DNA from: Lingula anatina
Lineage: Eukaryota > Animalia > Brachiopoda
Direction of reading: 5' to 3'
Assembly (NCBI GenBank): GCA_051362555.1
Contig: CM120642.1
Coordinates: 7,874,001 to 7,938,000, forward strand
Length of the DNA: 64,000 bases
How positions within the stretch are numbered: position 1 is the first letter of the stretch; the number at the start of each line of letters is the position of its first letter. Under the pieces are notes generated by a model. It searched no databases and was not told the DNA's origin. It saw only the letters and a list, made by a program, of their open reading frames with translations. Both the position numbers and the translations under genes were made by a program. Positions 30,560-59,410 of the stretch are shown here, piece by piece.

Positions 30560-31246
30560 ATGGAGTATCAGACGAAACTGTATGTTGGGGCGATCCCTGT
30601 GCTGTTAGCTTTGGCCTGGACTTTTCTAGGTCCAAATCTTGAAGATTTTTCACAGACAATATCGATAAATGACGCCGATCTTCCACAAGGCACCCCACCC
30701 AAGGGACACTTGCGCCCTTTCGGATACCACGCAGATGAGGAGAAGGGGATCGTCGAGCTAGACGAATTTCCTGATCCGGAGACTTTTTACAGGGACTTTA
30801 TGAGGAAATCTGTCCCTATGATAGTGCGAGGTGGAGTAAAGCACTGGCCTGCGGTGGAAAGATGGAAGAGCGAGGATTACCTGAGAGAGAAATTTGGACA
30901 TCAAGTATTCAACGTGATGTTTAAAAACACTTCAGTCGACAAAAATCACTTTGTCCATATGGCAATGCATATGGATGACTTTCTCAAGTAAGAAAGCTCA
31001 GATATTTCTGTCTTTAAATTGGATTCGATTGGCACCTTTATTTCCTTCACTTATTCGGGTCCTTTAGCAGAAAAATCCTGATAAATACCGTCCGTCCATT
31101 TCTATCACCCTGAGTTTTAAAGAGCACTGTGCGGACAGTAAACTCGGTAGTTTATTATCATATCTCTCTTGATAGTGGAAACGGCAGAGACATGCAGATA
31201 TGTGTAAGACAGTAGAGAGTTTTTTTATTTTTATTATTATTATTAT

Positions 31247-31281
<35 letters not shown>

Positions 31282-34200
31282 GTGCCCTCTGAATCTCGGG
31301 GCGTTTTTTCATACTCCCTCTGCACATTTCCTCGGGTACCCTAAGGTCTATTTCCAAGGTGGTATTCTACCCTCTGCCAGAGCTGCAGATTAAATAAGCG
31401 CACTGTTCTCCAACGCAACACAGTGGTAAATAGTGGCATGAAATAACCAGAGACATATCTTTGAATGTCTAGTTAAAAATCAACGTGTAGTCCAGGTAGA
31501 GGGTAGGGGTGTTAACGTTTCCATTCGAATAGTGACTCACCTATGTGCAGTCTTCTACAAACTGTATATACCCGTTCACTGTCACTGGTACGTATCGGTG
31601 CATGTAGCTCGCAATCCGCTTTATTGCCTTACTGGTGGACTGACCTACCGGGGTACATGTTGGGTAAAAAAGTTATTTAAGTATTCAAATCACATTATTA
31701 CATTCCAGTTCTGAGTGCCAGTGTCCCTTTTATATCAAGCAAAATTGTACATATTTGCGTTTGGGAGCTCGTTTGTTAGATTTGTAATTTAATATTTCAT
31801 CAATCAGTTCATCTATTTGTTTTATTAACTCATTTCGTGACAATGTGTTTATAAACTGAATACTTACTATCCTACTTATTTATTAATTCCAGTCATTATA
31901 AGAACCACAAACTCTACTTAGACTTTGGAATAACTTCAGAGATGGCGGAGGACGTTACCCTTCCAAAAATATTCGGTTGTGACACTTATTTAAAAATTGT
32001 AAGTAGTTTTTTTTCTAAATTAAGTCAACGGTTACAAGGGTGCATTACAAAATGTGTAATTCAGGAAACAAAAAATATTACCCACTTTCATTGTTCGTTG
32101 ATTTTTATTGCTCCCTACCTCCAAAACTTGGAAGCAGATGATGATTCAATAACAGTGCATTTTCCATTATCTAGATGAAGCAGTACCAAATTTTCTTCAA
32201 TGCCGGTTGGTCCAGCACCGACCTTCACCTTGACATCACGGAGACTTTCTTCGCCCAGGTGACCGGTCAGAGACAGTGGATACTGACCACACCTAGAGAC
32301 GGCAAGAACGCATACAGCGATGACTTTGAGCATCATACAGGTCGTTTGTTAATCTCTCACTCTCACTAGCTTTCAAGCATAGACCTAAGACGCATAAAAT
32401 TCATGATTATATAGACTTATCCTCATTCAGTATGAACACTAAATGTTGCTTCAAAACAAAAATACATTTCAAGCCAGTTTAAACAAATTAGTTGACTTTG
32501 TACAACAACGTAATTTATAAGGAAAATTTTCATATTCAGACCTTTATTGGTAAAATGGGGTAAGAGCCCAATGTCCACTTCATTTAAACTGCAAGTTATT
32601 TATCAGATATATCACAGACTTGCGTTTCCATCCTCCCATCTTCCGAGTTGGGGATTTTTCACGTAGTTGTTTAGTATTTGTCAATGCACAAAATTAGTAT
32701 TAGTAAGAAAACATTGGCAACACCACCTCAGAAATACGTTTTTTTTTTAATTTTAGGTATATCTCAGCTTGATATCGAGTCTGTGGATTTAATCAATTTT
32801 CCCGACGTAACCAAGGTGGATGTATATAATATAACGGCCAATCCTGGAGACATCATTTACGTACCTGAGGGCTGGTGGCATCAGGTGCGAGCGAAAGGTC
32901 CCAACCCGCCAAACATCGCCATCGCCATATTTCTCCACTGGCTGAACTGTCAGTACGAGGTTCCACCTGGTACAGATGCCGAATATATAGACGGATGTAT
33001 AAAGATCCGGGAGGAAAAGCCGCTCGGTGGGTGTTACTGATAGAAGCATGGAGAGGGAAGACCCACCCACCCACCCACTCAACAGCTTATTTGACTTTTT
33101 TTAGGCTGCCTAACATAAAGTGTACATCTTTTAAATTGTCTATTACCATTTATTTAGTCTAGTAGTGACGTCGGTATGACGTCAGCATGACATTAACATG
33201 GTCATATTCCTCACGATTCTCCACCTTGATAAAGATTGACTATTCAAATGCATGTTTTTTCATGGTCAAGCTCGCAAGCCCTCCAAGAAAGACATATTAT
33301 ATCAAAGATAATTTTAATTGATTTTATTAAAAATGTGGCTTAAGCGCTGGTGAGGCTTCTGAGAGCGATAATTTAAAAAATGATTAAACGTGCCTGCTGG
33401 TCGTATTTCTCCGCAAGTTCTTTTCAGTAGTAATTAAATTCCTGTCTTTCTGTCTTTCTGTCATCTGTGTATGTCCTCTACCAAGAAAAAAGACTTCACG
33501 TTATCAAAGTTAATTCACTATTTATTTATTTATTTGTTTTAGAAATGACTTGTGGCATGAAAGTTGACGAGGCCCCTATCAGCGAGCTGATGAAAACGCT
33601 GAAACACATGGAACTGGAGACATTTACTGCAATCAAAGAGAGAGAGAACTGGACAATAACGAGTGACCTGAAGTTTGTAACTTCACTGCTGAAGAGCGGA
33701 TACGAAAGTACTTAACGTGTAGTATAATATATGTTAAAAAAGAGAACAAAAATCCCATAGAACGTTATTAACGTAGCCACTTAAATTGACTTAGCAAAGG
33801 AGTTTATGTACGTTAAAACGTACATAAACTCCTTTGCTAATATTAAAAACGTAAAAAAAACATTCAAAAGTTTTTAATATTGTGGTTAATACAAACTAAA
33901 TCAAAACTTTATGAGACATTATTATGAATTTATAATATTTTATCATTGAATTATATCACGAAAATAATAAATAAATGCTGGTGTAACTTTGTTGAATTTT
34001 TCCACAGTGCCTGACCTGGGACTGGGACTTGGAGACATACCTCACAGTGAGTTAAAAGCTGCCCTTGAATACGCTCTCAAAGTTGGATACAGGTAGGGGA
34101 ACGTTCATACATGAGCCGATATATCCCTTAAAATCCTTTACATCTTATGTTTCGTTTCCAGTACTGAAGTGAACGCCTTGGCTAACGAAAAAATGGATGC

Positions 34201-35328
34201 TGACTTATACAACAATGGCGGATCTAGCAGAAAGTATATACCGTCCGAGCAAGTGCCCCCCTTTTCTCCCTTCCAAATTAAAATAAGTATAACGAGTAAA
34301 ACGGGCGTTTTTTTATCAACCCCCTCCTTATATTAGAATTGGTCTCATGTCTTGTTTCATGCTATCCGTCTTTGTGTTCCGCTATTAGCAGCATCCTGGA
34401 TTCCAGTGCAGTGTTGTAGGCCTAAAGGTTCACAAATCTTTTGAAATTGAATATCAAACTACAAACTGTGACAGTTCATTTCTACAACAATTATGTTGTC
34501 TGATAAAGATGGTAGAACAGTGTCATAATATGTATTACAGTTATCATGTATTACAGCTATCAAGTGTATTACAGTTATCATAACTTAGATGAATTAAAAA
34601 AATTCTGTGAATTTTTTAGGTTATTTGACCCAGATTTAATCGAGGGGTCCGAGTCTATTCTGGGGTCTGTTTTGGCGAACAACAAATACTGCAAACGAGA
34701 AGACGCTTTCGTTATTGTTAAAGTTCCTCAAGACAGTTTAGGTATAGACGCCACCAGAAAGTCGGTGGAAAACTCATTGAAGAGACTTCAGACTGACTAC
34801 TTGGATCTGGTCTTGCTGCAAGCACCATCTTGCGACCCCAAGGACGTGGAGTGTTGGGAATTATTAAAAGAATCATGGCAGACGTTGGAAGAAATGAACG
34901 CTACGGGAAGCATTCGTTCCTTGGGAGTTATGGACCTTAAAATGAAGAACCTTCGAGATCTAATCAAAATCGCCAAGGTACCAATATCCGTCGTTCACAG
35001 TCGATTCGACCTCATGAAAAGAAGGACAAAATTACGACAGCTCTGCGATGACAACGGTATTCGTTTCATGGGGCACAGTATAATGGGACAAAAATGGCAG
35101 ACAGAAGACGGTCAAAATCCGTTAATGTCCAGCAATGACTTGAAGGTAGTGTCTAGAAGCGTTCACACTACAACACAGGCGGTTCTAATCCGGTGGGCGT
35201 TGGATCAGAATGTCACCGTAGTTCCACGAGCGTTAAATATGTTTTACATTTCTCTCAATCAGAGGGCGCTAATGACTGACATCTCTGAATTTGAAGACAT
35301 TTTCGAAAACTTCCCTCATTCAGATTAG
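30560..35328 (+). CDS. JmjC/cupin dioxygenase-aldo-keto reductase fusion, paralog A, 642 aa, 7 exons
   Basis: Exons 30560-30987, 31893-31998, 32175-32340, 32757-33026, 33543-33707, 34008-34092, 34620-35328 (1929 nt, all GT-AG, phases match). N-terminal hydrophobic segment; JmjC motifs HWPAVERW..EDYL, HLD, GDIIYVPEGWWHQV; AKR motifs LKSGYEMPDLGLG, GYRLFD, REDAFVIVK, LQTDYLDLVLL, VLIRWAL. Confidence 0.92.
31367..31506. mobile_element. Short MITE, TACCCTCTACCAGG TIR family
   Basis: ctaccctctgccag ... ccaggtagagggtag. Confidence 0.7.
33791..33840. repeat. Perfect 24-bp inverted repeat (hairpin) in intron 5 of paralog A
   Basis: TTAGCAAAGGAGTTTATGTACGTT-AA-AACGTACATAAACTCCTTTGCTAA. Confidence 0.95.
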
Positions 35329-35841
35329 TCCTGGGAGATTTCTTCTTTTTTCTGTTCTTCATAATGCGTTTTATCTTTATTAGTTTAATTCTATCCTGTG
35401 TGATACGTATGTGTTTTGGACAAATAATATACAAATAGCGAAGAAAACTTTTTGTATAATTATTATCCTTAAGTACATTATTTAGGTGTGACCATTCTCT
35501 GAAAATGTGATTAGCTTCTTCTGGGAAGACCATATGTCTTCATACGATATTATTTCACTGTATTCAGAAAACTATCCAATGATTAATCGTTACGTTTTAT
35601 TCAGAGTACTATCCAATGTTTTTGTTGTTGTTTACTTCTATTCAAAATACTATCATATAATAATTGTTCATGAATTATTCTATTCAGAATAATATTCAGT
35701 GTTTTTCGGTATCGTTTTATTTTATTAAGAATACTGCCTTTAGTTAAGAAATATAATTATGATGTCTTATATCAGGAGTTGTTATGATCAATACATCTTT
35801 GTGTTTTGATGAGTTGCTGTGATATTTCTTCGTCTGTTTAA

Positions 35842-36179
35842 AGGGATAATACTCTTCGTTTTGACAAAAAAATGAATTTTCCTGGAGTAAACAACAATTT
35901 TCCCGTACTTACCAATGGTCAATGGATTCATTTTTACATTCATTGTTTTTTTGTGTTTTTTTTTTCTAAAAGGTTTTTTTTTTATATAATCTCTTAAGAG
36001 ATTATAATAGAGTATAGCCATCAATGGAGGTCACGTGGTCTAAAGACAAGCTCAGATATAAGAATAATAGCTTTAACTGCCGTTTTTCTTGTACAACAAA
36101 ATATATTATATTTTTATGAGTTGTTCACAATGTTTTTATTGTGAAAAAAAAAGATCTCATACGAAGAGTTATTATCCCT
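35842..36179. mobile_element. Kolobok-like MITE (TTAA TSD, AGG termini)
   Basis: ttaa|agggataat(a)actcttcgt ... acgaagagttattatccct|ttaa; second copy at 40792-41119. Confidence 0.8.
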
Positions 36180-38804
36180 TTAAGAATATCCCTTTGTAAC
36201 ATATATCAATTATAACAATACGTAATCATCATTTATTTCTTAAAACCATGCTACACATACATCTCAGTGCTGTTCAAATAATTTAAAAACAGGCCCAGGA
36301 AAACTGGTCATAAAAATACACCGTTTCTACTCTAAAATTAAAGATTATACATAAAATAATTCGCGAAGGGCCCTGGACCACTAATTTACGCGTCTGAGCT
36401 CACATACTCTCTCATGCCACGATTTGACGAGTGGGATATCGTTGGGTGGTTATTTATCAGCATCATCATAATTTGTTTCGTTTTGAGATTGAAAATCCAA
36501 AGCGAAAGATTGAAGAAATGATTTGTCTAACACTTTTGACTATTGTGAACATGAAGTTGGGTAAAAACTGCTTGTGTTGAATCCGATCCATCATGGTATC
36601 AGCGGAGGTTCCCACTCGGATATCTCGACTGTTTTGGTATTAGACGTCATTTCGGTGTTTCCTCAGTGTGGTGAAATTAATACCTTATGACTTAACAACA
36701 TTTTAGTGTAAGGGAGTTTTGATAGTTTGAATGAATATACTGGGTACAGTAAAAAAAGTTTAAAGATTATTTTCCGTATGTGTTTGTTTATTATGTATGT
36801 AAAAGATAAAGAAAGAAAAGATTTCACTTTTCGGGTGTCAAACCGGATCCAAAGCGATTGTGTTTGCACAGGTTACATGTACCACCCAGCCATGTCAACT
36901 TAGTAGAATATATATTGGAAAATTAACGTGTGTTAAAAACATCAGACTTTACAGAAATAAAGGCTTTAGAAACAAACAATCGCAAAATCATTTTCGTTTT
37001 ATCTGAGTTCAAATCAACCAATGTACACAGAGCTTCGCGAGAGCATTCAGGGCAATGGATGCGTGTACATGTAAGTATGAGTGGCCCATTGTATGTGCCT
37101 AAAAGAATAACCTTTTAGTTATCAGTCATAATATTGGTGAAAAAAAGTTAATGCAATTTAATTCTAAAAAAAGAGCTATGAATCAGTAGAATCGCCACTC
37201 GCGCCTTTTTTATGAAAATAAATCTAATGAATGCTGTTTTGCAAGTTTTCTGTTATACAATTCGACTTATAACCGCTGTTGTCAGAAAAATGTGAACATT
37301 TATTGAGGAATTAAAGAAAAAACATTGCAGTGTTGACCACTGTCCGCTGCATTAGAGGTTTCCTTTTGTCTGATGGTTGGAGCAAGGTATTACTGTGTAA
37401 TGGCACTGATGCGTTGAATAACTAGAAAAAGGTACTTTACATTATTTAACTCAAGTGCCACAAGTCACGCTTTTAAAATGGGATATTTGAATCATATATA
37501 CTGGGTCATGATTCAAGAAGATTTTTGACCAATGTTATTTCTTGGTTCCAAACCCCTCAAAACAGCGTCAGTTCGTCTAAGAAAAGAAACTGTTGGTTTC
37601 GGGGAGTACTCGATTTATGATTAATTTTATAAATTCGGTGGGAGGGGGAACATTCAAAGTGGCCATTTTATTAGCTTTATTCAAAAACCGAAATGGAGTA
37701 CAATGAATTTAATAACCCAGCAGATTAAAAAGAACACAATATAAGCTGTTTCTTGGTAGTACCAAATTTTCAGAGATGTTCGATGTCCATATTGTAGTGT
37801 CTACTATTTAGATCCTCCCTGCCCCCTGTGCGTATGACTGATGGCGTAAAAAAAAGTTGGGGTTGGGGATAAGATACCCCAACCCGCCTCCTCCGAAAGT
37901 CGGCCCTCAATTTAGTTATAATGGTTAGGGTTAGCCTGAACTAAGCCTGAACGAAGAGGATTAAAGTCTAGGGCAAGGAGGGGAGGCTCTCTTTTACGTT
38001 ACACCGGAATGAAACATTATACTTATTTATGTACTATTAATAATATATATTATTATATATATAATAATGACTTACATTAATACACGAAACTTTTTTTTTT
38101 GAACAAAATGAACATATTGCTCAACGCAATGCAATAATCAGAAAAGAATTTGAAGAAACACTTTATACTTTCCCGAATAAAATAAACAGTAACAACATCT
38201 TATAAAGACTCATAAAATTTGGATATAACGGTATTCTCGACTGAGTCACTTACTCAAACATATACATATACGTATAATTATTGCACAGATCTGTCACATC
38301 TTCTCGAGACGTACGTCCAACCACACATTACCACAGCATAGGATGGAGATGATTAAAAGCAAAATCATGCGAACCAATCTTCATTGGGAAACTGATCGAA
38401 AGTTGCTTCAAATTCAGAGTCCTCTGGTTGGAAGAAATGTAAAAAGGACTCGAAACTCGAAGAACCAACGCCCATCAGACCAGGGCCGCCTGTGGTGTAG
38501 CGTTCAAGACACTATTGATTATGAAAAAATATCGGATATAACTATTTGATAGAATTTGACATTTGCCAATGTTTCTTATACAAACGTAGTTTTCTAAATA
38601 TAATAAACCAATATTCAACATAGAATAAAACAGTACGTAACAATAATGATAATGTATGTTATGGAGACATCTACTTGTCCGAATAAAACCTTCATATATT
38701 TTCACTTGCTATATATCCCAAAATTCACTAAGATAAAAAACGAACAAAGATAACATGCCTTTTCAGGAAAAGAAAAAAAAACACGAAAAAGAAATCTCAT
38801 AAGA

Positions 38805-40111
38805 CTAATCTGCGTGAGGGAAGTTTTCGAAAGTGTCTTCAAATTCAGAGATGTCAACCATCAGCGCCCTCTGGTTGAGAGAAATGTACAACGGATTCAA
38901 TGCTCGTGGAACTACGGTGACATTCTGATCCAACGCCCACCGGATTAAGACGGCCTGTGTTGTAGCACGAGAGGTTGCCGAGACTACACGTAGGTCATTG
39001 CTGGTCAGTATCGGATTCTGACCGTCTTCCGTCAGCCATTTTTCTCCCATTAAACTGTGCGCCATAAAACGAATGCCGTTGTCATTGCAGAGCTGTCGTA
39101 ATTTTGTCCTTCTTTTCATGAGGTCAAATCGACTGTGAACAACAGAAATTGGTACCTTTGCGATCTTGATGAGATCCCGAAGGTTCTTTATTTTTATGTC
39201 CATCACCCCCAAGGAACGAATGCTTCCCGTAGCGTTCATTTCTTCCAACGTCTGCCATGATTCTTTTAATAATTCCCAACACTCCTCGTCCTTGGGGTCG
39301 CAAGAAGGCACTTGCAGCAAGACCAGATCCAAGTAGTCAGTCTGAAGTCTCTTCATTGAGTTTTCCACCGACTTTCTGGTCGCGTCTTTACCTAAACTGT
39401 CTTGAGGAACTTTAACAATAACGAAAGCGTCTTCTCGTTTGCAGTGTTTGTTGCTGGCCAAAACAGACCCCAGAATAGACTCGGACTCCTCGCTTAAATC
39501 TGGGTCAAATAACCTAAAACAACATTTTGTAAACGCCAAATTATAAAAAAGCTATATGTATAATACCTTTTGCTTTATCCCACAATATTGTGTCTTAAAA
39601 AAGTGAACTATTACTGCAGTGCCTTTTGATCTTCAGTTTTCACAGATTTTTTATTTTTTACCATAACAGCTTCAACTGTTTAAAACGCGATCGGCCTAAC
39701 ACTGAAAATATTTCAATACTGGGAAAGAAACTTAAGATGGCAACATGTACAATTCCACGGTGATATTGTTCACCTACCTGTATCCAGTCTTAAGAGCGTA
39801 TTCAAGGGCAGCTTCTAGCTCACTGTCAGGTATGTCTCCAAGTGCCAGTCCCAGGTCAGGCACTGCGGAAAAAAGTTACACCAGCATCTATCTACTATTT
39901 ACATATTATACTTCAATCATAGAATTTTAATTTATTTTACAGTTGAAAATGTACTGTCAAAAATTGTTGAGTAAATTTCTGTCCATAAACCCGTTTCTGG
40001 GCTCTAAATGTCTATTCTGATTGTCATGTAAGTCTTTCACCAGTATTCATCTTCATTACAAAAGTTACCCAAAATTAGAAACCGGGCTTAGATATCATTA
40101 TTCTGTCGACG

Positions 40112-40144
<33 letters not shown>

Positions 40145-40203
40145 TTTGTGGAGCACTAAATGTGTACATGACTTGCTATTTGCTGGATCACTATTCTACA
40201 AAG

Positions 40204-40273
<70 letters not shown>

Positions 40274-42342
40274 TGGAGAACAGAACATATTAATAATACT
40301 TAATCTATAATTTTACCTTACTTAAAACAATAAAGTTAGTACACATGTGATGTGATATAATACACTTGTAAGGCTGCTTTACGACAGTGACTTGTAGAAG
40401 GCTAACGATTAAAGCAATAAGCAATGTTGGGCATACTTTCATATCCACTTTTTAGCAGTGAAGTTTGAATTTCCAGTTCTTCCATGATTTCACTGGCATC
40501 CTCACTGATTGAAGTAAAGACGTCCAGTTCCATGTGTTTTAGTGTTTCCTTCAGCTCACTCATAGGTGCTTCATCAACTTTCATGCCACAAGTCATTTCT
40601 GAAAAAAAAATCGACTATGAATCATCTTTGATATCACAGAGGATTGATTGATTGATACAAAAGAATATGCACCGGTTTGCATATATTATCAAAGAGGAAA
40701 ATATGAGTAATGTTACCAGCAGGCACACCGACGTCATACCGACGCCACTGCTGGAAGATGTGAATACTGTTTATATTTTAAACGATGTTACAGGGATAAC
40801 AATTATTCGTATGAGACTCATATTTAACGAGAAATACGTTGTAAACAACTCATAGAAATATAATAAATTCTATTTTACCACCAAAACGGCGCTTAGCGCA
40901 ATTATTCTGAACCTGTGCTTGCCATCGGACCACGTGACCTCAATCGGTGGCTTCCTTTGAAAGAATCTCTTAAGAGATTTTTACAAAAACCAAACTTTTT
41001 AAAACCATGGACTAGCTTTGAATGTCAGAACGGGTTTATGAACCATTGTGAAGTATGGGGGAATTGTCGTTTACCCCAGGAAAATCCATTTTGGGCCAAA
41101 ATGAAGAGTTATTATCCCTTTAACCTTACAAATAGGAGGCAACCTTAGAAATTCAGGTGTGGATGAAATGTAGACCTGAGATGGCGTTGGTGTGGGCTTG
41201 GGCTTCTGGGCGTTCCATCAGTAACACTCACCGAGCGGCTTCTCCTCCCGGATCTTTATACACCCTTCTACATATTCGGCATCTGTACCAGGTGGGACCT
41301 CGTACTGACAGTTCAGCCAGTGGAGAAATATGGCGATGGCGATGTTTGGCGGGTTGGGACCTTTCGCTCGCACCTGATGCCACCAGCCCTCAGGTACGTA
41401 AATGATGTCTCCAGGATTGGCCGTTATATTATATACATCCACCTTGGTTACGTCGGGAAAATTGATCAAATCCACAGACTCGATATCAATCTGAGATATA
41501 CCTAAAATGAATTTTTTTAGACTGTTAAGGGGGGTTGTTGATGTAAGAATGGCCCTCATAATACAACGTCGACAAAAATAAAATCGCTCAAATGAAAAGA
41601 TGCTCTTTTTTCCCTCTTTGGTTAAACATATGGGCTTTGCTTTTATAAACATATGTTAATGTTACCTGTATGATACTGGAAGTCGTCGCTGTATGTGTTC
41701 TTGCCGTCTCTAGGTGTGGTCAGTATCCACTGTCTCTGACCAGTCACCTGGGCGAAGAAGGTCTCCGTGATGTCAAGGTGAAGGTCGGTGCTGGACCAAC
41801 CGGCATTGAAGAATATTTGGTACGGTTTCATCTAGATGATTGTAAATGTATTGATTATGAAAATACATCTTTTTTTTTTTTTTTTTTTTTGAGTGGGAAA
41901 TTAGAAATCAACCAATCAAGTAATGACGATCATGTGTCATTTTTGTAAAAGATAAACCTATGGCTTCAGACTTAATAAGAACAGTAATAGTTATTTCTTG
42001 CTTAAAATAAGATCAGTATTTCAGTGACTGAGCATCTGTATTATAAGTATTTGTATGCACTAATGTAGTGTATCGTTCTGTACTTGTACGGTGATGTGTT
42101 TTCTGATTCTGTGATGTATTAGCGGAATAACAAAACAAAACTGGTTATCATACGCATTTTTATTTCTTGCTTAAAAATAAGATCAGTATTTCAGTGACTG
42201 AGCATCTGTATTATAAGTATTTGTATGCACTAATGTAGTGTATCCTTCTGTATTTGCACGGTAATGTTTTCTGATTCTGTGATGTATTCATGTTCCTGTA
42301 TGTTTGTCTTCTTTGTAATGTGCTGTATTGTGTTTGTATATG

Positions 42343-42379
<37 letters not shown>

Positions 42380-43809
42380 AGTAATAGTTCCATTCTATGA
42401 AAAGCGCTATACATGCGTCCAAGCGCTGTTTACATATGAATATAAAAACTAAAAATACACAGATCATTTTAGAACTTATATAAGAGAAAGTTAAGCTAAA
42501 AGATACAGGTTAATTAAAAAATTTAAATAAAAAGTTTTTGTGTTTTTTTAGTTCTTTGAAAACAATGATAGGAGTCATTAAAAGAACATTTGCTTTATTA
42601 ATGTAATTGGACCATAAAATTGATGCTGTAGTGTCAAAAGCCCTGTGACCATACGTTTTATTTCTTTTTATTGTATCATCCCGCTTTAGTTGAATTCGAC
42701 CACTGAATCTTACACACAGTTTGTTTGTTAATCTCATTCGCCGTTAAATAAAAATGTACTCACAATCTTAAAATATGTGTCACATCCGAACACTTTTGGA
42801 AGAGTGACGTCTTCCGCCATCTCTAAACTTATACTGGCGTCTAAGTAGAGTTTGTGGTTCTTATAATGACTGGAATTAATACATAAATGTAAAGGTAGAA
42901 CAACTTAACTTACAAACATCAAATACGCAGCTTTTTTTAATTTATTTAAAAAAAGTAGAGAGTAATCATGTTATTTTTAAAAATAATATAGTACAATTTA
43001 TAGCTATGGCCGTCATCCGGTACGTGACCTACCTCTGTAAAGAAATTGAGTGTCCGTGTGACAGAGAGTCCGCCCTCCATTAGATTCATACAGGTTTACA
43101 TGACGTAAGTGGGTCATATTCTAAGTGGCCTTACCTGGACAAGGGAATGGGAACCGGTGATGGTGGGCGGGTGAAAAGACAGCCTCAATGTTGGCTGTCT
43201 TTGACAAGGTACACCGTCACGCTGAGATGATGGCCCGAGGCTGCACACCCGGGGAGGCGTGGGAAGGGCATTCAGAAAGGGGCGGGAGTTATATAGCAGG
43301 ATTTTTATGCAAAAGGACCTGCATTAGTCAAGGAAATAAGCGTGGTGAACTTTAAAGATAAAGATACCTAAGTTAGCTTACTTGAGATAATCATCCATAT
43401 ACATGAACATATGCCCAAAGTGATTCTTGTCGACTGAGGTGTTTTTAAACATTACGTTGAATACTTGATGTCCAAATTTCTCTCTCAGGTAATCCTCGCT
43501 CTTCCATTTTTCCACTGCTGGCCAGTGCTTTACTCCACCTCGCACTATCAAAGGGACAGATTTTCTCATATAGTCCCTGTAAAAAGTCTCCGGGTCAGGA
43601 AATTCGTCTAGCTCGACGATCCCCTTCTCTTCATCTGCGTGGTATCCGAAAGGGCGCAAGTGTCCCTTGGGTGGAGTACCTTGTGTGGGATCGGCGTCAC
43701 TTACGGATAAAGTTTGTGAAACATCTTCAAGTTTTGGGCCTAGAAAAACCCAGGCCAAAGCTAACAGCACAGGAATTGCACCAACGTACAACTTTCCCTG
43801 ATACTCCAT
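38805..43809 (-). CDS. JmjC-AKR fusion, paralog B, 641 aa, 7 exons
   Basis: Exons 43809-43382, 42869-42764, 41831-41666, 41501-41232, 40598-40437, 39862-39778, 39513-38805 (1926 nt). Same exon sizes and phases as A except exon 5, which is 3 nt shorter. Confidence 0.92.
40792..41119. mobile_element. Kolobok-like MITE, inverted copy, in intron 4 of paralog B
   Basis: agggataacaattattcgtatgaga ... gaagagttattatccct|ttaa; shares the internal gaccacgtgacctc motif with 35842-36179. Confidence 0.75.
41992..42290. repeat. ~170-bp tandem duplication in intron 2 of paralog B
   Basis: tatttcttgcttaaaataagatcagtatttcagtgactgagc... occurs at ~41992 and ~42161. Confidence 0.85.
42400..42740 (-). mobile_element. 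Decayed 3' end of an L2/CR1-type LINE
   Basis: Minus-strand peptide KTYGHRAFDTTASILWSN...FKELKKHKNFLFK resembles the C-terminal YGxRAF..AAP.LWN..FK..LK..LF tail of L2/CR1 ORF2. Confidence 0.5.
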
Positions 43810-43914
43810 TCTATACTGGAGTGAATACAAGTTAAATACAGCAAGTCAATTGTCTCGTTCTCAGGGCAAATGATAAAGGCTGCATGCGGCCAAGACGAGG
43901 CAACGGTGCGTAGA

Positions 43915-44880
43915 GTGTTTTAAAATGCATTTACGCAGGGGATTCGCATCAACAAGTCCTCGTCAAAGCCTTTCTGTTCCGCACCAGTTTCCACCAAAAG
44001 AATTACCTTGCTTAAAGAATCCGTGAGTCAAAAAGGTCATGGTTACAGTCTCATCTCGACTTCAGGTGATCATACAACATGGTAACAGCTGAATGGTTGG
44101 AAAGAAAACATAGTTTTAAAGGGAGAGCAATATAAGGTTAAAATACCTGTCTTCAAACGATCAAAAGACCAAAAAGATATCTCAGGGGGTTATTTACATA
44201 AACATATGTGAACATTTTATGGTGTACTACACTTATGGTGTATTATTTGCAAACTATATAATGTCACTTTTTACTTAATGTTGACCACTTTTCATATTGG
44301 AAAGTAGTTGTATAAAACAGACAAAATAATGGGGCTAGACAATATTATGCAAATTCTACACAAACTGTGTGCCACAGTGTTTTAAATGCATTTAAAAGAA
44401 GGTTGGATTCTCAAGGGATTCTCATCAACAACTGCTCGTAAAAGCCTTCTGTTCCGCACCAGTTTCCATCATAAGAATTATCTTGCTTAAAGAACCTGTG
44501 AGTCCAAAAGGTCATGGCCACAATGTCTTCACCAATTCAGGTGGACGTAACCTGGCAACAGTCTAATCGTTGGAAAGAAAAAATAGTTTTGAAGGGAGAG
44601 CAACATAAGATACGTATCTTCATATGAAAAGAAACGACCGAATGAGATTCTCGGTTTTAAAAGGCACTTTGTGTTCGATCCAACTTACATGTTATTTGTT
44701 ATTTACATATGGGTCATCCCACGAAACGGTACACATTTGGGTCACATCGGTGACGAGAACATATTCTGTAACATTTTCAAGCTGTTTAATGTCACTGATT
44801 ACTTTTAAGATTATTTTTAATTACATTAAAATGTTGATTTCTTTCAATATTGGTAAGTAGTAATATAAAACAGAAAAAAT
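43915..44880. repeat. Diverged ~460-bp tandem duplication in the divergent B/C intergenic region
   Basis: 43915-~44330 aligns with 44377-~44880 (e.g. ttctgttccgcaccagtttcca, ttgcttaaagaa, aaaaggtcatgg, ttggaaagaaaa...aagggagagcaa). Confidence 0.8.
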
Positions 44881-45030
44881 ATGTGGAATGACCCAGATAG
44901 AACTTTAAAATAAATTTTTAATTTCTCAATAACTTTCCTTTTTTTCTACGGTACTGACAGTGTGCGCACTACCTCCGCCCACACCTACAAACGGACCTTA
45001 ACAACTAAGTGCAGGCAACCGATACCAATA

Positions 45031-45160
45031 TACCCTCTACCAGGGAGACAGACTGATTTTTCACAGATATTCACAGTTATGTCTCTGGATAAACAGACAG
45101 CTATTTTTGTATGAATTTTTCCGTTTTTCCCAAATAATCCACCACCCTGGTAGAGGGTAG
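45031..45160. mobile_element. Short MITE, TACCCTCTACCAGGG TIR family
   Basis: Perfect 15-bp TIR taccctctaccaggg / ccctggtagagggta. Confidence 0.8.
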
Positions 45161-45984
45161 TACCGATAGGTGGGGTATGACAAAAGGTAAAAATGCCTCT
45201 TAAATTGAAAAAAGAGAAAAATGTGGTCATTAATTATAGAATTAAAAATCCACAAATTGTGTTTTAAGCTTTATGTACATTTACCTACAGGTACGGGATG
45301 ACAGCTTTTCATATGAGATTCATAATTTCACAATAAATATAACGTAAACAGCATACAGAAATATAATAGGACCTTCATACATGTAGATGGCTACCCTCCG
45401 TAATAATCTCTCCGTAATAAAAGAGATTATTACAAAAAGAACACACTTGAAAAAACCATCGACTAACTCTGAAGGTCGAAACAGATTCATTAACCATTGG
45501 AAATGTGACAAAACTGTCGTTTACCCAGGAAAGTCCGTTTTATGCAATTTTTCCTGCCAAAATGATAAGTTGTCATCCCTGTAATGGTCAAGCCAATAAT
45601 GGAGGGTCACAGCGGTTTTGATGGAATATAAAAACCTTTTGAAAAGCGGCAGAGCGCATCTACTGTCTTGGGTCTGTATTCGAAAAGTTCACTCGGCGCT
45701 CAGTTAGTGCAGGGAATTATAACGGATATAATACATTTCTGATTTTCACGCGTGACAGGAAACTTATGATGCATTTGTTCAGTATCTGAAACGATCTTAT
45801 TGAGGAAGCATTCACCCTACACACATATTAGCGCTTAGACCGGCCTTCAGTCAGACTTGAGTAATATGAGAGAAGTGTTAGCGAGTGGAACTTTTTATTC
45901 ACCCAAGCTCTAGTGTAAAACGGTGCGTTCTTCACTTCGTATCGTACGCTGTCGAGTGTCAGGACAAAAAACTCCGTTACCAAT

Positions 45985-46426
45985 ATGGAGTACCAGATTA
46001 AAGTGTGTATTGGGGCAATCCCAGTGATTATAGCATTGGCTTGGACTTTCTTAGGGTCGAACCCAGGGGACGGCGTTGCACGGATATTGAATGTTAAGCC
46101 GGACGAGGCCGAATACATGGGACAGGCCCCAAGGGGGCACATGCTTCCTTACGGACACCATGTCGAGGAGCCAAAGGCCATCGTAGAGCTAGATCATTTT
46201 CCTGATCCAGAGACTTTTTATAGGGAATATGTTCACAAATCCGTCCCTTTGGTGGTTCGAGGGGGGTTGAAGCACTGGCCTGCAGTGCAAAAATGGAAAA
46301 GTGAAGATTATTTGAGAGAGAAGTTTGGAGGGAATGTGTTTCAAGTTATGTATAAGAACGCGACAGCCGACAAGGAGCATTACTCTTTCATGTCTATGAC
46401 TATGGACATGTTTCTGGAGTAAGTAC

Positions 46427-46465
<39 letters not shown>

Positions 46466-49400
46466 ATTATTGATATCGCCGACATTATATTTTTACTGTT
46501 TAATTCTTCAATACAATCTTGAGGCTCTATATGCAGAATACGGTGCAAAATTATCCAGTATTTGAGATTGAAGGTATACTTTCTGCGTTTGTCCCAAAGT
46601 TATATTTTCTGCGTCTACATATTTTGCAAAGCTACTTATCTTTCCCAATTCAAAACGATAAACCGCCTCAAATAAAAGCACCTAAGGTAGATATCTCTTT
46701 GTCATATGTACGAGAAAACATGGCGGTCTGAATGAATTGAGCACTAAATTACTGAATTAGAAATGGTATAAAACATCGAAACCAATAGCTGGTACGGGTG
46801 GAGAAATGATTTGTAAATAAGAAAATATTGCTTTTTAACGAGGATCATTCGATTTGGTGGCAAAGTTCCAGATAGGATACCTTTAATTCGTGAAGAAATC
46901 TGACGTTAACGAGACTGCAGTGCCTTATAAAATGACCCTTTACACTTCAGTGATTACAAGAACTATAAGCTATACTTGGACTCACAGATATCTATAGAAA
47001 TGGCAGAGGACATAACCTTGCCTGGTTACTTTGGATGCGACCACTTTCTAAAGCTGGTATGCTATGTTTTGCATAAACCCTTAAAGGAATCTGTGGTTTT
47101 TAAAATTAGTGTTGCAAAAACAGATTATCATAAAATTGATGTTGACGATCGCTGAAGCACAATGCGCATGCACACACACACACACTGCATTTTAATTCTA
47201 AGGATGATAACACTTTGACACCTTAATTCCCAACAGATGACTGGGGTCAACATATTCTTCAATTCGGGTTGGTCGAGCACCGAGAACCACCTTGACATTA
47301 CGGAGACGTTCTTCGCTCAGGTGGTGGGCGGACGACAGTGGATCCTGACGCCCCCGCAAGACGGACAATATCTGTACACAGACAACTTCACGTGGCATTC
47401 GGGTAATTCATAAGTTTCATTCATGCTAGATTTTATTTTCACCTTTTGGGTCTCTTTTTACGTGGCAGGAACGAGACAGAACGTGGAAATCAAAGGGAAG
47501 TTAATAAAAGAAAAAAAATTAAAAGCACAGCTAATTTCAGATTTTAAATGAATTTACTTCTTAAAGTGACTTCTTATTCAATTATCTTCTCCCACTGAAA
47601 TTTTTTAGATTATTTGATTTATCGAACATACAGGAACCCCAATATTTTACTGCAATGATACGGCCACTACAAGGGTTCGGACACTACATGGATAATATAT
47701 GTGTGCCTCCTCTGTACTAAAAAAATATGAAAAATAGGAATTATGTCCTTCATTCAACATTAAATGAATAGGCATAGGTTATGGTACAGGTTGATTTTGA
47801 CTAGGATCTTACCAATATTTCTTATGCCTTGTCCAGTGTGGCATGAGTTACGCCGTTTTCACGTAGCGCATTAGAGGAGTGTTTCAAGTTATCTCTTAAA
47901 CTGAGGGTGCAAAACAGACAATGTGTCTAACTTTTGTTAGTTATAATGAAAAATAAGTACATGTCAATCTTCACCTTCACACCCTACCTATTTTCGGTTA
48001 TAATAATTATAATTATATTGCACTCAAGGTATATCCCCTGTGGATAAAGAAGCAGTAGACCTGTACCGTTACCCGGACGTCGCCAAAGTGGACATTTATA
48101 ACGTCACAGCCTACGAGGGGGACATCGTGTACTGCCCAGAGGGGTGGTTCCACCAGGTCAGCGCAGTAGGTGGACCAAACATAGCCATTGCCTGGTACCT
48201 CTATGACTACGACTGCCAGACTAAATGCAAAATGACCACGTACCAAACCTATGTAGACTGCTGTACTGACATACGGAATAGTAGACCAGATGGTATGATA
48301 CTGTTGATGTTGTTGCTGTTTAAATATTGAGGGAGTCAGAGTTCATAAACAGATATCATGAATTTCTAAAGAACACTCTTAACATCCGGGATTTGGATTA
48401 TTTACATTTATTACAAGTTACTTTGCGCAATCTCTCTCTATCTTTCTCTCTGATTTTGCACTGATACATTCCCCTCTCCCCAGTACATTAAAAACACATA
48501 ACTCAGTCATTATTTATCTTGCAGAGATTTCTTGCCATATAAAACCGGAAGAGATGCCTCTGGCTACATTGCTTCGTGCGTACGTCGATGACGTACCATT
48601 TGCGGCAGATCTGGACGCAAGAACACTGGAAATATTTTCTCAACCAGAACCTTTCCAGTTAAACAGTGGATATGACAGTAAGATTAATATGTATTGTTGT
48701 TATTATATTCTTTACGTATATACAAAAATAACTTTCTTTGCTATTCAATGAAGTACGGTGTTTGATTACAGAAACTGAAGGGTATTCCATTGGAACATCA
48801 CCCTGATGTATGCTTCATACGTAGACATACAAATTACCGTTTCCATTTCTTTAACTTACCAAGGTGCAAAATGAAATCTTTGCTGTCTTTCCTCAATTGT
48901 GACCTTTTCTTTGTTTCAATCAGTGCCGATACTAGGCCTTGGACTTGGGGGCATGGCAGAAGAGAAAATTGAAACCGCCGTTAAAAGTGCATTAAAATTT
49001 GGATACAGGTAAATAATAACTATTTTTCTTGCTCGTGCAAATGTATTGTTCTTACATTACCAAAGACGATCTTTTAAGAGGCCTTTCTGTTTTTCAGACT
49101 TTTTGACACAGACCCTGTGGACGAATCTGAGAAAATATTAGGATCTTTTCTTGCAAATAACAAGAATTTTAAAAGAGAAGACGTTTTCATTATTGTCAAG
49201 GTGCATCCAAAGGATCTGGGAAAAGCCGCCACCAGAAAATCGGTTGAACGCTCGTTGGAGAGGTTGAGAACCGACTATTTGGATCTTGTTTTGATTAAAG
49301 CGCCATCTTGTGAGTCCAAAGAACACAGTTGCGAGACAACTGGCACGTGGCAAGAATCGTGGGAAAGTTTGGAAGATTTGAAGACCATGGGTAGCGTTCG

Positions 49401-49827
49401 CTCCTTGGGGGTGAGCAACTTTAAAATCTCTCAACTCAAGGAACTTTTGTCCATAGCAAAGGCTCCAGTTTCGGTGGTCCAATGCAGGTTTAACATTTTA
49501 TTAAGACGAGAAAAGATGCGGAATTTTTGTAGAAAACATGGCATACGCTTCATGGCCCACAGTCTGCTGGGATATGATATGGTGCCCTCTTTCGGCGTAA
49601 ACCCACTCATGGAAGGTAATAACGCGGTAACTATTGCCGCCAGGTTGCTGCACACCAGCCCAGCTACTCTTATGGTCAGATGGGCGTTGGAGCAAAACGT
49701 TACCGTGGTTCCAAAAACGTCCCATCCTTTCCACCTATTACTCAACGTACAAGCACAGGAAGGCTTAGACTTGGATGAGAGACCGGAAGTGAGGGAAATG
49801 TTAGATAGGATGCCGCATACCAGTTGA
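45985..49827 (+). CDS. JmjC-AKR fusion, paralog C (more divergent), 645 aa, 7 exons
   Basis: Exons 45985-46418, 46951-47056, 47237-47402, 48029-48292, 48525-48677, 48924-49008, 49098-49827 (1938 nt). HLD and GDIVYCPEGWFHQV; AKR LNSGYDMPILGLG, GYRLFD, SLGVSNF, VVQ, VVPKTS. Confidence 0.92.
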
Positions 49828-51241: not shown

Positions 51242-52859
51242 TCAGCTAGTGTAAGTCCTCACTGTCTTCCTGGCTTGAGAGTACAAATCAAGCGCCATCT
51301 TGTGTCCATTTCTGCACCAGGGGACATCAGTATTGGAATCACAGTAAAAATAGAGCCCCAAGAGTATGGCTACCATGGCGACTACTATGCCAAAGAATAT
51401 GCTACAACAAGATGCACCACCCCCTGTAAAAAGAAATAACAATTGGTGAATTATTCAAAAAGAACAACTCAATCATATACTTGGTAACAACTATTACTCT
51501 ATATAATCAAAATTCACCTATTTTGTTATTTTCTAAGCAATATTGTTTTTCCAGAAATACACCTTCATCCATCAGATTTAAAGATGTGTTTAAAGTGAGT
51601 TAAGTCAAATCACTGCCTTGAACCCCAACCAAATCCCACCATGAAGTTTCAAATAGCAGAAATTGACGACATTCCTGAAAAATGATATCTGAACAGACAT
51701 TTCAGCTAACTATCATTTGAATAATTATTCTTTATTGGCAGTAAAGTGTCATACATGATTACAGTGTCAATTGGTGGACTTTTAAGAACTGTGAGGGTGC
51801 TAAAGGAGGTCAAATTTACTACCAGAAATTTGAAGAAGATGCTTTTTATTAGGATGACTGAGAGTTAAAATTGGGTTTACCCTTTGGCATACAGGGAATA
51901 TACACTTGTTTATATGTAACATTTTACAATAAATATACACCAAAATGAAAATGCACGCAACAGCATGATTGACACTGCATATTCTTACCAGTCTTGATTG
52001 CCTTTTCCTCAGCACTGTGACCATTGAGTGTCTTCCTGTTTTCAGTTTGTAATGGTACTGTCTCTTCCTTTTCTTGTTGCCTCTTTGCTGCCTGAGATGC
52101 CTCAAATTCTCTCTTCCTTCTTTCTTTCTCTGCTTTCTTTTCTGCCTTTTTCCTTTTGTTTTCCTGTTCTTCTTCTGCCTTTCGAAGATTTTCTTTAGCT
52201 GAAGAAATTTTGAATAAAAAATCTTATCTAATGCCAAAAGAAAAACAAAACTAAAGCATATATGAACTGAACAAAAACGATGTGAACACATTTACACATA
52301 AGGATGTGTCACTGCTAACAATTCAAAATATCACAGACTGAAATGTTAATAAAATGCCTAAACTTAATTTGACATTATTTTCCAACTTGCAGTTATTGTT
52401 TACAAATGCCTGTGTACTTGACATTGACAAAAGATGAAAAATAGAAAAGAGGGTTTAATTTATCTACACAACTGACCTCTTTCTTCGTCTAATTTCTTTT
52501 GTTTCTGTCTATCAAGTTCTGACTGCACTTTCTTCATATATGCCACCATCTAAAGTTAAATATAAAAATATTTATCAATTATTCATTGAAAAGAACATTA
52601 TAGTATCACAGTAAATTAATATGAAGTTTCTTACAAAATCATAAGCTGCTTGGTATACTCTTCAACAGAACTGCTAAATCAAGATAACTAAATGCATATT
52701 GGTGATTGTCGTGGTTAACTTTATTCAAACACACCAACAGGTCAGAGTGAGAAGTACCTCACAGACACAAAAATAATCACATTTACAACCATCAAATTTA
52801 CCATCCACAAAAAAGACCAAACAGGTCCTGGTTTTTACCATTTTGTATTTGTAGGACTG

Positions 52860-52919
<60 letters not shown>

Positions 52920-52923
52920 CAGT

Positions 52924-52958
<35 letters not shown>

Positions 52959-55900
52959 TTTTCAAACACCACCACTCACTTTTAATGATAGGTTCATTTC
53001 CCACTTCAAAAATAATTGGCACAGATAAAAATTACCTTTCTGCAAAAATGTTAATATTTTGAATGGAAAAAAATAAAACTTCATATTTATACTTTTCAAA
53101 CACCACCACTCACATTCTGTGCACATCTTCTGCACTGCACCTCATCCAAGCAGTCCCCAGCCACCTGCTTCAAGTTTTCACTGAGAGGGTTGTCTTTAAG
53201 GTCCAGCCACTTCAACTTTTTCAGGTAGCACATACCGACTGGAAGAGTGGTCAGTTGGTTACCAAGGAGATCAAGGTGCTCTAGTTTCTGTAGCAACCCT
53301 ATGTTGGATGGAATTTCTGTGAGGCTGTTCTTGCTCAGGTCTATTTTGACCAGGTAGTTCAGTTTGGTGCAGAAGTCATCCTGTAAAGAATATCAATGGA
53401 ATTTTAACATTTGTAATGGAGGGGAGGGGGGGGGAGCAAATGACCATAATTCTTACAGTCGGCATGACGTCACAAGATGGCCGCCACGCCCGGACTAGGG
53501 TAAAACAATCTGTAAGCTCCATTACTCCCCATGTTAAAATGATCAACTTTGATCATCTGTATCTCTCACACCGGTAGATAATTAAACTTGACAACTGTTT
53601 AATTATATCAACATAGGTATTTAGTGTCAGGAAATGGCCATCAAGGACCTTTTCTAGCATTGATGCCGATTTTATCAGCGATTGAAATGCACCTCTCTTA
53701 CACTGTAATTATATGAGCTGCAGTTACAGTTCTGATTGTTTTTCAGGTAAGAAGTTCCAATGGCTTTGTTATCGGATGAATCTGTCCACTGACAGCGATT
53801 GAACAGAACTTACCTGGATCCTCAAACAATCATAGAGCCCTTTGAGGTGGTTTCATGGGAAGAAAGTGATCTTATCAGTTGGTGTCATTGTAGCAAATAG
53901 AACTAAAACAGATATGATCTTCACAGGTGTGGTCATTGTATTTGTCTTTGAAAAGGGGGGCTGAAAGAAAGCTTTAATGACAATTTACTAGTCTGATTTT
54001 ATTACTGAAAGTACATGCCCTTTTGAGAATTTGAACAATTTTTTCTAGTAATTTTTTAATACCCATGTTGCTGCAGACAGAATTGAGATCATGGACAGAA
54101 TGAAATTTTTACATACTCAATAAATCATTTAATTATTGTACTATGAAGTGTGTAAATGGCAATAATGTGCTATTGGAACAGATAAGTAATACCTTATCTT
54201 TGTGATGTTGCACACTTTCATCAAGAGGATAGAACGCAAGAAAGGCTATCAATGCACATACTCCAGTATATGAACTGGAAGAAACAAGTGAGTGGAGCTG
54301 TTTGCTGAGTAAAATCTATTAACCCATGCAATTAGAAAAAACACTCAGCAATCAAATTTTTGTTATGGATTGGACACTACTGTTATATTTGCTTAAGTGT
54401 GATATAGAAATTCTAATTCATTTTTACTGTACAAATGTTAATTCAGAATGGAACTTTACAGCATATGTCAAGGAATTTTATAACTCCTTTCTTACATACC
54501 TTATACATGTAGATAGAAATAAAATGTAAATTTAAAGTCAACAAGTTTTATTGTATCTTTCATTTTGCATTTTGTTTAAGAATTCAAAGTGATTTATGAT
54601 GGTTAAATATGCATTCAATTCATATTTTTATAGATCATACTTTGTATTGTGATATTGAGTCTGATGTTCTAAAAATGAAAATGAAATCACTACTGTATAA
54701 ATTTATATTATTTTCTAAAGAAAAAAAAAACACCATGAACTTCATTTAGCATCAGAGTCAAAAATGATTTGTAGATTTTGACAATTTATAAAGATTTAAG
54801 TGAGGCTTTCATTCAAAACTTTTTGTTTAATTGGATAATTATGGATGAATCTATTTATGAAAAATAATTTTGGCAGGCCTCTAATGAAATTTTTTACGTT
54901 TTTGCAGAAATTATAAAAGCTAAAAAAGTATTTCATAGTCTCTTCAAACATAATCCAGACAACAGTAGAAAAATAAATTTTAATGAAAAACACAGCAGTG
55001 ACAAATTAAAATTCTTTTTGAAAGCACATTAATTGCATTACTTGAGACACCTGCTTCGAACACGACAGGACTGAGCAGTGCTACCCAAGCCTCCTTTTCT
55101 AGCTTATCAAATCTTTCAAACTGAGACCTCTAAAAGCAATATGAATATAATAGTTTTCTTTGTTTAGATAATGATTTTATTATACAAGAATTCTGACTGT
55201 ATATTAATGAACTGGGTGCGTATAGGTCATAGTGTCCCAGTAGGAAAAATTGCTTTAAAAATAGTACACTACCATCGTTGATAAAGTCGCCACTGACGCT
55301 AGATAATCCTTTTGATGGCAATTTCCCTGAGCTAAATACGTAAGTGAATATCAACAAACAGTTGTCATGCGTATTTGTTCACAGATATACTTGATACAGA
55401 CGATAAAATATACCTATTACAACATGCATCTGGTGTAAACTGAAATTGCAGCCCGTTGGAGGAGTGTTGGTATTATCGCTGATAAAATCACCATCAGCTC
55501 TAGAAAATCCTCCTGAGGCCCATTGACTGACGCTAAAAACCCTAGTGAATATAACCAAGTGGTTGTCACAAGTAATTGTCCTCTGGTCTGCTTGATATGA
55601 ACGATCAAAGTTCACCAATTTAACATTGAGAGTAATGGGCGCAAGCCAATGTTTTACCCTAGTCCAAAATGAGAGCCTCGTTCTGGGTTCAGTAATCCTG
55701 TAACCGACTGTAAGAATTCAGCAAAAGCAGATGCCAGGTTTTCATATCAGTATGGGCATCGCAAGTAAAATACTGATCAATATCTATGTAACATGTAACT
55801 AGTAGAATTTTTTAAAAAACTTACTGGTAAACTTTTAATCTGGTTACAAGATAAGTCCAAACGAGTTGCTTTCGGCAGGGCAACCTGGAATACAAAAGCA

Positions 55901-59379: not shown

Positions 59380-59410
<31 letters not shown>

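Follow-up and report, generated by a model that had tools for sequence, protein, structure and literature searches.

In the brachiopod Lingula anatina, we analyzed a stretch of 64,000 nucleotides (contig CM120642.1 of assembly GCA_051362555.1, positions 7,874,001 to 7,938,000 of the forward strand; here called the window) and found three paralogous genes, each encoding, in this order, a hydrophobic anchor, a JmjC oxygenase domain, a cysteine-containing linker, and an aldo-keto reductase (AKR) barrel. We favor, with moderate confidence, the reading that each gene makes one protein, likely lumenal in the endoplasmic reticulum (ER), which acts as an Fe(II)/2-oxoglutarate (2OG) hydroxylase of secreted proteins or glycans and carries its barrel as a predicted noncatalytic binding or scaffold module. 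The data show the gene structure, the domain folds, the residue patterns of both active sites, the expression of a gene like copy 2, and orthologs in other species; the lumenal location, the oxygenase activity, and the loss of reductase activity are inferred. The choice of proteins or glycans as substrates is a guess by analogy with residue hydroxylases of the FIH/JMJD5/JMJD7 type.

Three fused genes and their expression

Six-frame translation alone yields only fragments of these genes. The gene models come from a search over candidate splice sites, which gave open seven-exon chains for all three genes; it returned alternative splicings (six for copy 1, one for copy 2, and two for copy 3), from which we chose those with exon lengths common to the copies. 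Copy 1 (642 aa) lies on the forward strand at 30560-35328, with exons at 30560-30987, 31893-31998, 32175-32340, 32757-33026, 33543-33707, 34008-34092, and 34620-35328. Copy 2 (641 aa), inverted with respect to the other two, occupies 43809-38805 on the reverse strand (exons 43809-43382, 42869-42764, 41831-41666, 41501-41232, 40598-40437, 39862-39778, and 39513-38805), and copy 3 (645 aa) occupies 45985-49827 on the forward strand (exons 45985-46418, 46951-47056, 47237-47402, 48029-48292, 48525-48677, 48924-49008, and 49098-49827). All 18 introns have GT..AG borders, and the cumulative phases 2,0,1,1,1,2,0 are identical in the three models. Database proteins of L. anatina match copy 1 at 98.1% identity over 483 aa (protein P0009), copy 2 at 99.2% over the full 641 aa (P0010, LOC106150561), and copy 3 at 98.8% over 601 aa (P0001, LOC106150558), and the RefSeq models have the same exon joins. 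The original prediction of three complete genes of 641 to 645 aa with a shared seven-exon phase structure is borne out by these data. The RefSeq model of copy 3 begins at Met45 and omits the anchor (window 45985-46116), which is in frame and conserved in the paralogs.

The layout can be followed in copy 3. Exon 1 (45985-46418), which is laid out alike in copies 1 and 2, encodes the hydrophobic anchor or signal (residues 7 to 23), the N-terminal part of the JmjC domain, and a conserved N-glycosylation sequon, present in 7 of 10 Lingula rows. The HxD iron ligands are in exon 3 (47237-47402), together with Thr at the position of JMJD5 S318 and Arg at that of the 2OG ligand K336; exon 4 (48029-48292) supplies the triad's distal His, along with two Cys that form a pair characteristic of the Lingula clade. 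Exon 5 (48525-48677) holds the linker, with a family-invariant Cys, and the first AKR strand, and exons 6 and 7 (48924-49827) hold the AKR barrel with a two-Cys loop, in which the Asp and Lys of the catalytic tetrad are kept, the Tyr position is Asp, and the His position is Lys. Pfam matched Cupin_8 in all five pieces of exons 1, 3, and 4 tested and Aldo_ket_red (PF00248) in all three exon-7 pieces (E values of 1e-26 to 1e-38); from copy 3, exons 2 and 5 were scanned as well and gave no match. The Met codon of the MP motif that starts the AKR domain is cut A|TG by intron 5, and exon 6 therefore has no start codon of its own. As predicted, then, each is a single fused gene whose AKR start straddles the exon 5/6 junction.

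Four raw RNA runs from the same species (X1, X4, X7, and X9) were compared with copy 1 only. Introns 1, 2, 3, 5, and 6 were found at their modeled positions in the reads of X7 and X9 (one joint row of X9 was dropped at skipped repeats), and in X1 and X4 exonic reads on copy 1 were nearly nil. At 29 of the 38 exonic variant sites, the reads carry the letter of copy 2; they stem mostly from a copy-2-like gene, which is expressed. Read depth per exonic base was similar on the JmjC part (exon 4; 54 in X7 and 47 in X9) and on the AKR part (exon 6; 46 and 41), which fits a single transcript but does not prove it. In the sponge Oscarella and the choanoflagellate Stephanoeca, the database entries are complete fused open reading frames derived from transcripts, and a fused mRNA therefore exists in those species.

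Copy 1 shares 88% identity with copy 2, and copy 3 shares about 52% with each of them. Exon 4 of copies 1 and 2 (32757-33026 and 41501-41232) is 97% identical, with a synonymous divergence (dS) of 0.07, against 75% and 0.66 for exon 5, a contrast that possibly reflects gene conversion between the inverted copies. A tblastn search across the window gave no fourth copy, only a decayed fragment on the reverse strand at 38377-38567, just downstream of copy 2, which resembles the last ~70 codons of AKR exon 7 with a stop inside (E value of 1e-4 with copy 2) and reads as a remnant of another duplication.

Active sites of the two domains

The JmjC half of the predicted model matches JMJD5, JMJD7, TYW5, and FIH with Z scores of 21 to 23. 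JMJD5 is closest by both sequence and fold (best Protein Data Bank [PDB] sequence match, E value of 1e-18; Z score of 23.2, root mean square deviation [rmsd] of 2.6, 226 aligned residues), and the JmjC-type halogenase 8a82 is also among the fold matches (Z score of 18.2). The HxD...H iron triad is present in all 10 Lingula rows of our alignment. The 2OG ligands of JMJD5 are K336, Y272, and S318 (PMC9712658). The Tyr corresponding to Y272 is kept in all eight Lingula rows covering it, and the S318 position is Thr or Ser. With JMJD5/KDM8 and its relatives JMJD7, TYW5, and FIH, the Lingula proteins thus have in common the double-stranded beta-helix fold, the iron triad, the Tyr and Ser/Thr 2OG ligands, and the Cupin_8 match, so that the claim of a JmjC domain of this type with an intact triad stands; they differ from this JmjC-only group in their N-terminal anchor, Cys pairs, AKR fusion, and Arg at the K336 position. 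The residues with which JMJD5 binds arginine, E238, Y243, and W310 (PMC5862942), have Met, Ser, and Phe as their counterparts in P0010, and the substrate should therefore differ from that of JMJD5. The JmjC domain is the most conserved part of the protein, with 64 to 65% identity of copies 1 and 2 to copy 3, compared with 50 to 51% for the AKR domain.

The barrel is an AKR by fold (PF00248; match to 1vbj with a Z score of 33.7, rmsd of 2.3, and 266 aligned residues), nearest to sugar and carbonyl reductases. The "full AKR barrel" of the original prediction holds for the fold but not for the active site, where the catalytic Tyr and His are missing in all three copies. When copy 3 is aligned to solved AKRs, the catalytic Tyr is seen to be replaced by Asp and the catalytic His by Lys. 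Neither residue is found in any of the 10 Lingula rows, the His position being Lys in eight and Gln in two (copies 1 and 2); the tetrad Asp and Lys are kept, and two of the four catalytic residues are gone. The Lys at the His position recurs in P0016, a fused protein from outside Lingula, and in the Sycon paralog P0050. In 11 of the 12 fused clusters from outside Lingula, the His and the loop Tyr are kept, in register in seven and with the Tyr displaced by an insertion of two or three residues in four. Judged by what we take to be the NADP(H)-binding residues of AKRs (SN, Q, PKS, a distal Arg, and Asn), copy 3 keeps SN, Q, PK, and Asn, the distal Arg being absent even in the orthologs, and in copies 1 and 2 SN has become MD and Gln has become His. 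Copy 3 and seven other paralogs retain SN, the Gln, and both the Asp and the Lys of the tetrad. AKRs use Tyr as their catalytic base (PMC13524815).

For the barrel, comparison of copy 1 with copy 2 gives a dN/dS ratio of 0.26, and comparison with copy 3 gives 0.14 to 0.16 (rough values, as dS is saturated there), indicating that the barrel is retained under purifying selection. The AlphaFold model of P0010 has a mean predicted local distance difference test (pLDDT) score of 92.3 and a predicted template modeling (pTM) score of 0.87, which suggests a packed two-domain unit. Compared with AKRs of the AKR1/AKR5 type (YvgN, prostaglandin F synthase, and xylose and aldose reductases; the family is defined in PMC9915212), the Lingula barrels share the (alpha/beta)8 fold, the tetrad Asp and Lys, and part of the cofactor site but have lost Tyr and His, carry a two-Cys loop, are predicted to be lumenal, and are fused. 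The active-site residues do not support the database names "prostaglandin F synthase" (P0009) and "xylose reductase-like" (P0007). Other barrel matches were SmbA (6gtm, ppGpp complex; Z score of 23.6) and the radial-spoke chain 7jtk_I (Z score of 22.7), which have no oxygenase fusion, are not lumenal, and show no sign of close kinship; like GCLM, they are AKR-fold proteins in noncatalytic roles and set a precedent for using the fold in binding or as a structural part. NphT-like (NPMN-dependent) nickel chemistry was considered and rejected, since the Lingula Lys replaces the tetrad His, whereas NphT keeps the whole tetrad (Y52, H106, K75, and D47) beside an extra His/Lys cofactor motif (PMC13524815).

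Distribution of the family and cellular location

An exon-7 search among longer proteins gave 12 proteins from 2889 candidates, 10 of which were L. anatina proteins with Cupin_8 and AKR domains, on four scaffolds; this copy number (10 protein clusters) was counted from database proteins, some of which may be haplotype duplicates. A word-based search with P0010 gave nine proteins among 7995 candidates, all from Lingula, and a 13-sequence alignment query gave three; such searches are insensitive, and the P0010 result would wrongly suggest a fusion confined to Lingula. A search for related loci yielded no conserved stretch that could be used. In a full HMMER search, the best 150 of 26,593 matches were taken. 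Profiles of both halves matched 38 of the 200 proteins examined, and without cluster-mates and one weak match (P0103) the tally is 10 Lingula proteins and 12 clusters from outside. Seven of the latter are from the amphioxus Branchiostoma lanceolatum, the hemichordate Glandiceps talaboti, the cnidarian Nematostella vectensis, the sponges Sycon ciliatum, Corticium candelabrum, and Oscarella pearsei, and the choanoflagellate Stephanoeca diplocostata; the other five are P0016, P0023, P0025, P0027, and P0030. As species names were assigned for 30 of the 148 new rows, this taxonomic range is a lower bound. Judged from these sequences, the JmjC-AKR fusion is ancient and not local to Lingula. The local expansion proposed at first is thus real in Lingula, but the fused family itself extends from a choanoflagellate to amphioxus.

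The seven named orthologs correspond to uncharacterized gene models (XP_066296046.1, XP_077998374.1, XP_048580544.1, XP_065176613.1, and XP_062505346.1 and the Oscarella and Stephanoeca reading frames) that share with the Lingula proteins the order of domains, the Cys in the linker, the AKR loop with its two Cys, and a hydrophobic N terminus but retain His and Tyr in the AKR site and Asn and Lys in the JmjC site. Five of the seven add a pyrroloquinoline quinone (PQQ)-like propeller, modeled as eight-bladed, and the three-domain model, with a pTM score of 0.63, suggests that it is loosely attached. The Branchiostoma ortholog has two AKR domains and a KDEL tail. The ESM Atlas gave one lead at 0.77, a cluster of 65 members with AKR and propeller, to which P0015 does not belong. 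No PDB row spanned both domains among 40 Foldseek rows and 50 VIA rows, lists that single domains can crowd. A Hydractinia cluster has JmjC and propeller without AKR, and in P0023 and P0025 the JmjC site is dead and the AKR tetrad intact; the halves are therefore separable in evolution, which argues against an obligatory relay between them. P0016 shares the Lingula-type substitutions in both domains. In an unrooted JmjC tree without an outgroup, the Lingula proteins group with P0016 and P0028 at 100/99. In the AKR tree, for which 15 of 55 alignment rows (long or redundant) were left out, a branch with an SH-like approximate likelihood ratio test (SH-aLRT) value of 89 separates 24 rows (fused proteins, AKR-propeller proteins, and two stand-alone tunicate AKRs) from 16 others, a grouping that this value neither shows nor rejects.

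AKRs are cytosolic enzymes in textbooks. A hydrophobic segment was present at the N terminus of every full-length member examined, with a hydropathy of 2.1 to 2.4 over 17 residues in the three copies. N-glycosylation sequons occur at three alignment columns in 7, 9, and 8 of the 10 Lingula rows. The exon-2 Cys, the exon-5 Cys, and the two AKR-loop Cys are invariant in all fused rows covering them, and the exon-5 linker Cys is likely the disulfide partner of the exon-2 Cys. C-terminal tails of the xDEL, xSEL, or xEEL type, like the KDEL of Branchiostoma, are seen on 10 of the 148 search rows. From the tails, the anchor, the conserved sequons, and the Cys pairs, we infer that the family is probably ER lumenal, in agreement with the secretory-pathway location first proposed. 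A precedent is JMJD8, a JmjC protein that resides in the ER lumen, apparently with its signal left uncleaved, and is suspected to be inactive (PMC5684140); unlike the Lingula proteins, which keep the Asp and the full triad and carry an AKR domain, it is JmjC-only and has its acidic iron ligand replaced by His.

The two-Cys AKR loop also occurs in 67 of the 122 AKR-only matches, and ShK domains were found in 8 of the 49 proteins scanned. Among the proteins P0033 to P0160, there is an AKR subfamily with the two-Cys loop, in which ShK domains or KDEL-like tails are frequent and whose named members are from tunicates, as well as stand-alone signal-bearing JmjC proteins ending in RDEL, HEEL, LDEL, or HDEL. 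Both are apparently lumenal families in their own right.

Alternative readings and significance

Under the reading that we favor, the ancestor would have been an anchor-JmjC-AKR protein with both active sites intact, joined by a propeller in several animals. In the Lingula lineage, the propeller would then have been lost, the co-substrate and substrate pockets of the JmjC domain changed, the AKR domain disabled, and the gene amplified, with the barrel kept as a noncatalytic binding or scaffold module. The orthologs outside Lingula may be true two-step enzymes; a relay from oxidase to reductase suits them better, with their AKR His and Tyr, than it does the catalytically degenerate AKR of Lingula.

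Several observations weigh against this reading. The position of the 2OG ligand K336 is Arg in all 10 Lingula rows and that of JMJD5 N327 is Thr in nine of the 10, and the JmjC domain could therefore be impaired too; outside orthologs with an intact triad have Lys at the K336 position, except P0016. The total sequon counts are not above those of shuffled sequences (P values of 0.18 to 0.30), and no KDEL-type tail is present in the Lingula proteins, which would therefore either depend on the anchor for retention or leave as secreted proteins. The Lys at the AKR His position, shared with P0016 and Sycon, looks selected rather than decayed. In the RNA reads, the junction of intron 4 (JmjC to linker) of copy 1 is not listed, its acceptor lying in a skipped low-complexity repeat stretch, and because the reads are mostly copy-2-like, little weight attaches to the lack of intronic reads on copy 1.

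It is conceivable, if doubtful, that the JmjC domain acts in the ER on a small molecule (a lipid, sterol, sugar, or specialized metabolite), with the barrel as a ligand pocket. The kinship of the AKR half to sugar and carbonyl reductases, the halogenase among the fold matches, and a paralog expansion with variable pocket loops, which fits metabolite diversification, would agree with this. The JmjC enzymes nearest in structure, however, modify protein residues or tRNA, and the propeller partners and the conservation since choanoflagellates would suggest a macromolecular client. Similarly tentative is a more elaborate proposal of a pre-animal ER-lumenal modification machine, in which the JmjC domain would oxidize secreted proteins at a residue or sugar and the AKR joined to it would reduce or epimerize the product or regenerate the reductant of the oxygenase; in Lingula, the gene number would have grown about tenfold, and the barrel would have been altered (His to Lys, Tyr to acid) for a new modification of the matrix or for a cross-link precursor of the chitin-apatite shell or cuticle. 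The shell role is without support in this analysis.

Lysine Schiff-base chemistry occurs on triosephosphate isomerase (TIM) barrels. The Lingula barrel might accordingly have been re-tooled so that the new Lys and the Asp or Glu at the Tyr position capture or convert a carbonyl that the JmjC domain has produced, by a Schiff base or an altered hydride transfer, in a two-step enzyme. The recurrence of that Lys, the cofactor and tetrad residues kept in copy 3 and seven paralogs, the purifying selection, and the confident two-domain model speak for it, but we think it unlikely: copies 1 and 2 have Gln at this position and have lost SN and Gln yet stay open, the copy-2-like gene is expressed, there is no Tyr general acid, and the described His/Lys variant NphT keeps its whole tetrad (PMC13524815). 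Improbable to a like degree is that both halves are noncatalytic in Lingula and serve as lumenal or extracellular binding or chaperone-like proteins, as the substitutions at K336, N327, E238, Y243, and W310 and the suspected inactivity of JMJD8 (PMC5684140) would allow; against it, paralogs that differ by about 50% share an invariant iron triad and retain the 2OG-binding Tyr and Thr, the change to Arg is a conservative one for binding a carboxylate, and the JmjC domain is the part conserved best. That JmjC and AKR are two adjacent genes joined by annotation only is very improbable. In favor of this, the RNA check proposed across exons 4 to 7 gave introns 5 and 6 but not intron 4, every copy reaches a stop within 4 to 12 codons when read past exon 4, and polyA-like hexamers are present in intron 4 of copy 1 and of copy 3. 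Against it, a separate AKR would have no start or signal, its Met codon is split, the phase is shared by all three copies, complete fused reading frames are found in transcripts assembled from other species, and the Cys residues of exons 2 and 5 do not vary between the choanoflagellate and Lingula.

Elsewhere in the window, a dispersed repeat at 35838-36183 and 40788-41123 has very deep, loose-ended RNA coverage in all four runs (400 to 2400x in its first 160 bases) and is probably a common element in many transcripts. The reverse strand has a DEG/ENaC-ASIC channel exon at 11681-12385 (PF00858, E value of 2e-34), a hydrophobic open frame of 263 codons without a Pfam match at 23175-23963, and a leucine-rich repeat exon (PF13855) with a charged Lys/Glu-rich exon at 51927-53392, which resemble LRRC59. 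Self-blastn showed a degenerate tandem repeat with a unit of ~160 bases at 57800-60400.

A literature search, with most subscription papers outside its coverage, found no paper on a JmjC-AKR fusion. A term search of the main texts of the Lingula genome and shell-proteome papers PMC4595640 and PMC13425148, with one supplementary file each, gave 0 matches for JmjC, cupin, or aldo, in papers whose tables may use gene identifiers only. Two KDM8-like clades have been described in annelids (PMC12153100), which may be stand-alone relatives. The architecture is apparently uncharacterized though already visible in automatic annotation; in line with the original premise, no characterized protein of this kind turned up in that search, although the family is widespread.

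We therefore describe what is apparently an uncharacterized, ancient secretory-pathway architecture of JmjC and AKR domains, seen in Lingula as an expansion with a disabled reductase. A lumenal JmjC domain with a full triad beside a lumenal AKR, kept from a choanoflagellate to amphioxus, would point to an unidentified secretory-pathway modification in early animals, and the ortholog in Nematostella (LOC5518642) makes the family directly testable. Lingula itself would be a natural experiment, with ten paralogous proteins in which the reductase site has been removed and the barrel kept, a transition from enzyme to pseudoenzyme for which the intact orthologs provide the controls.

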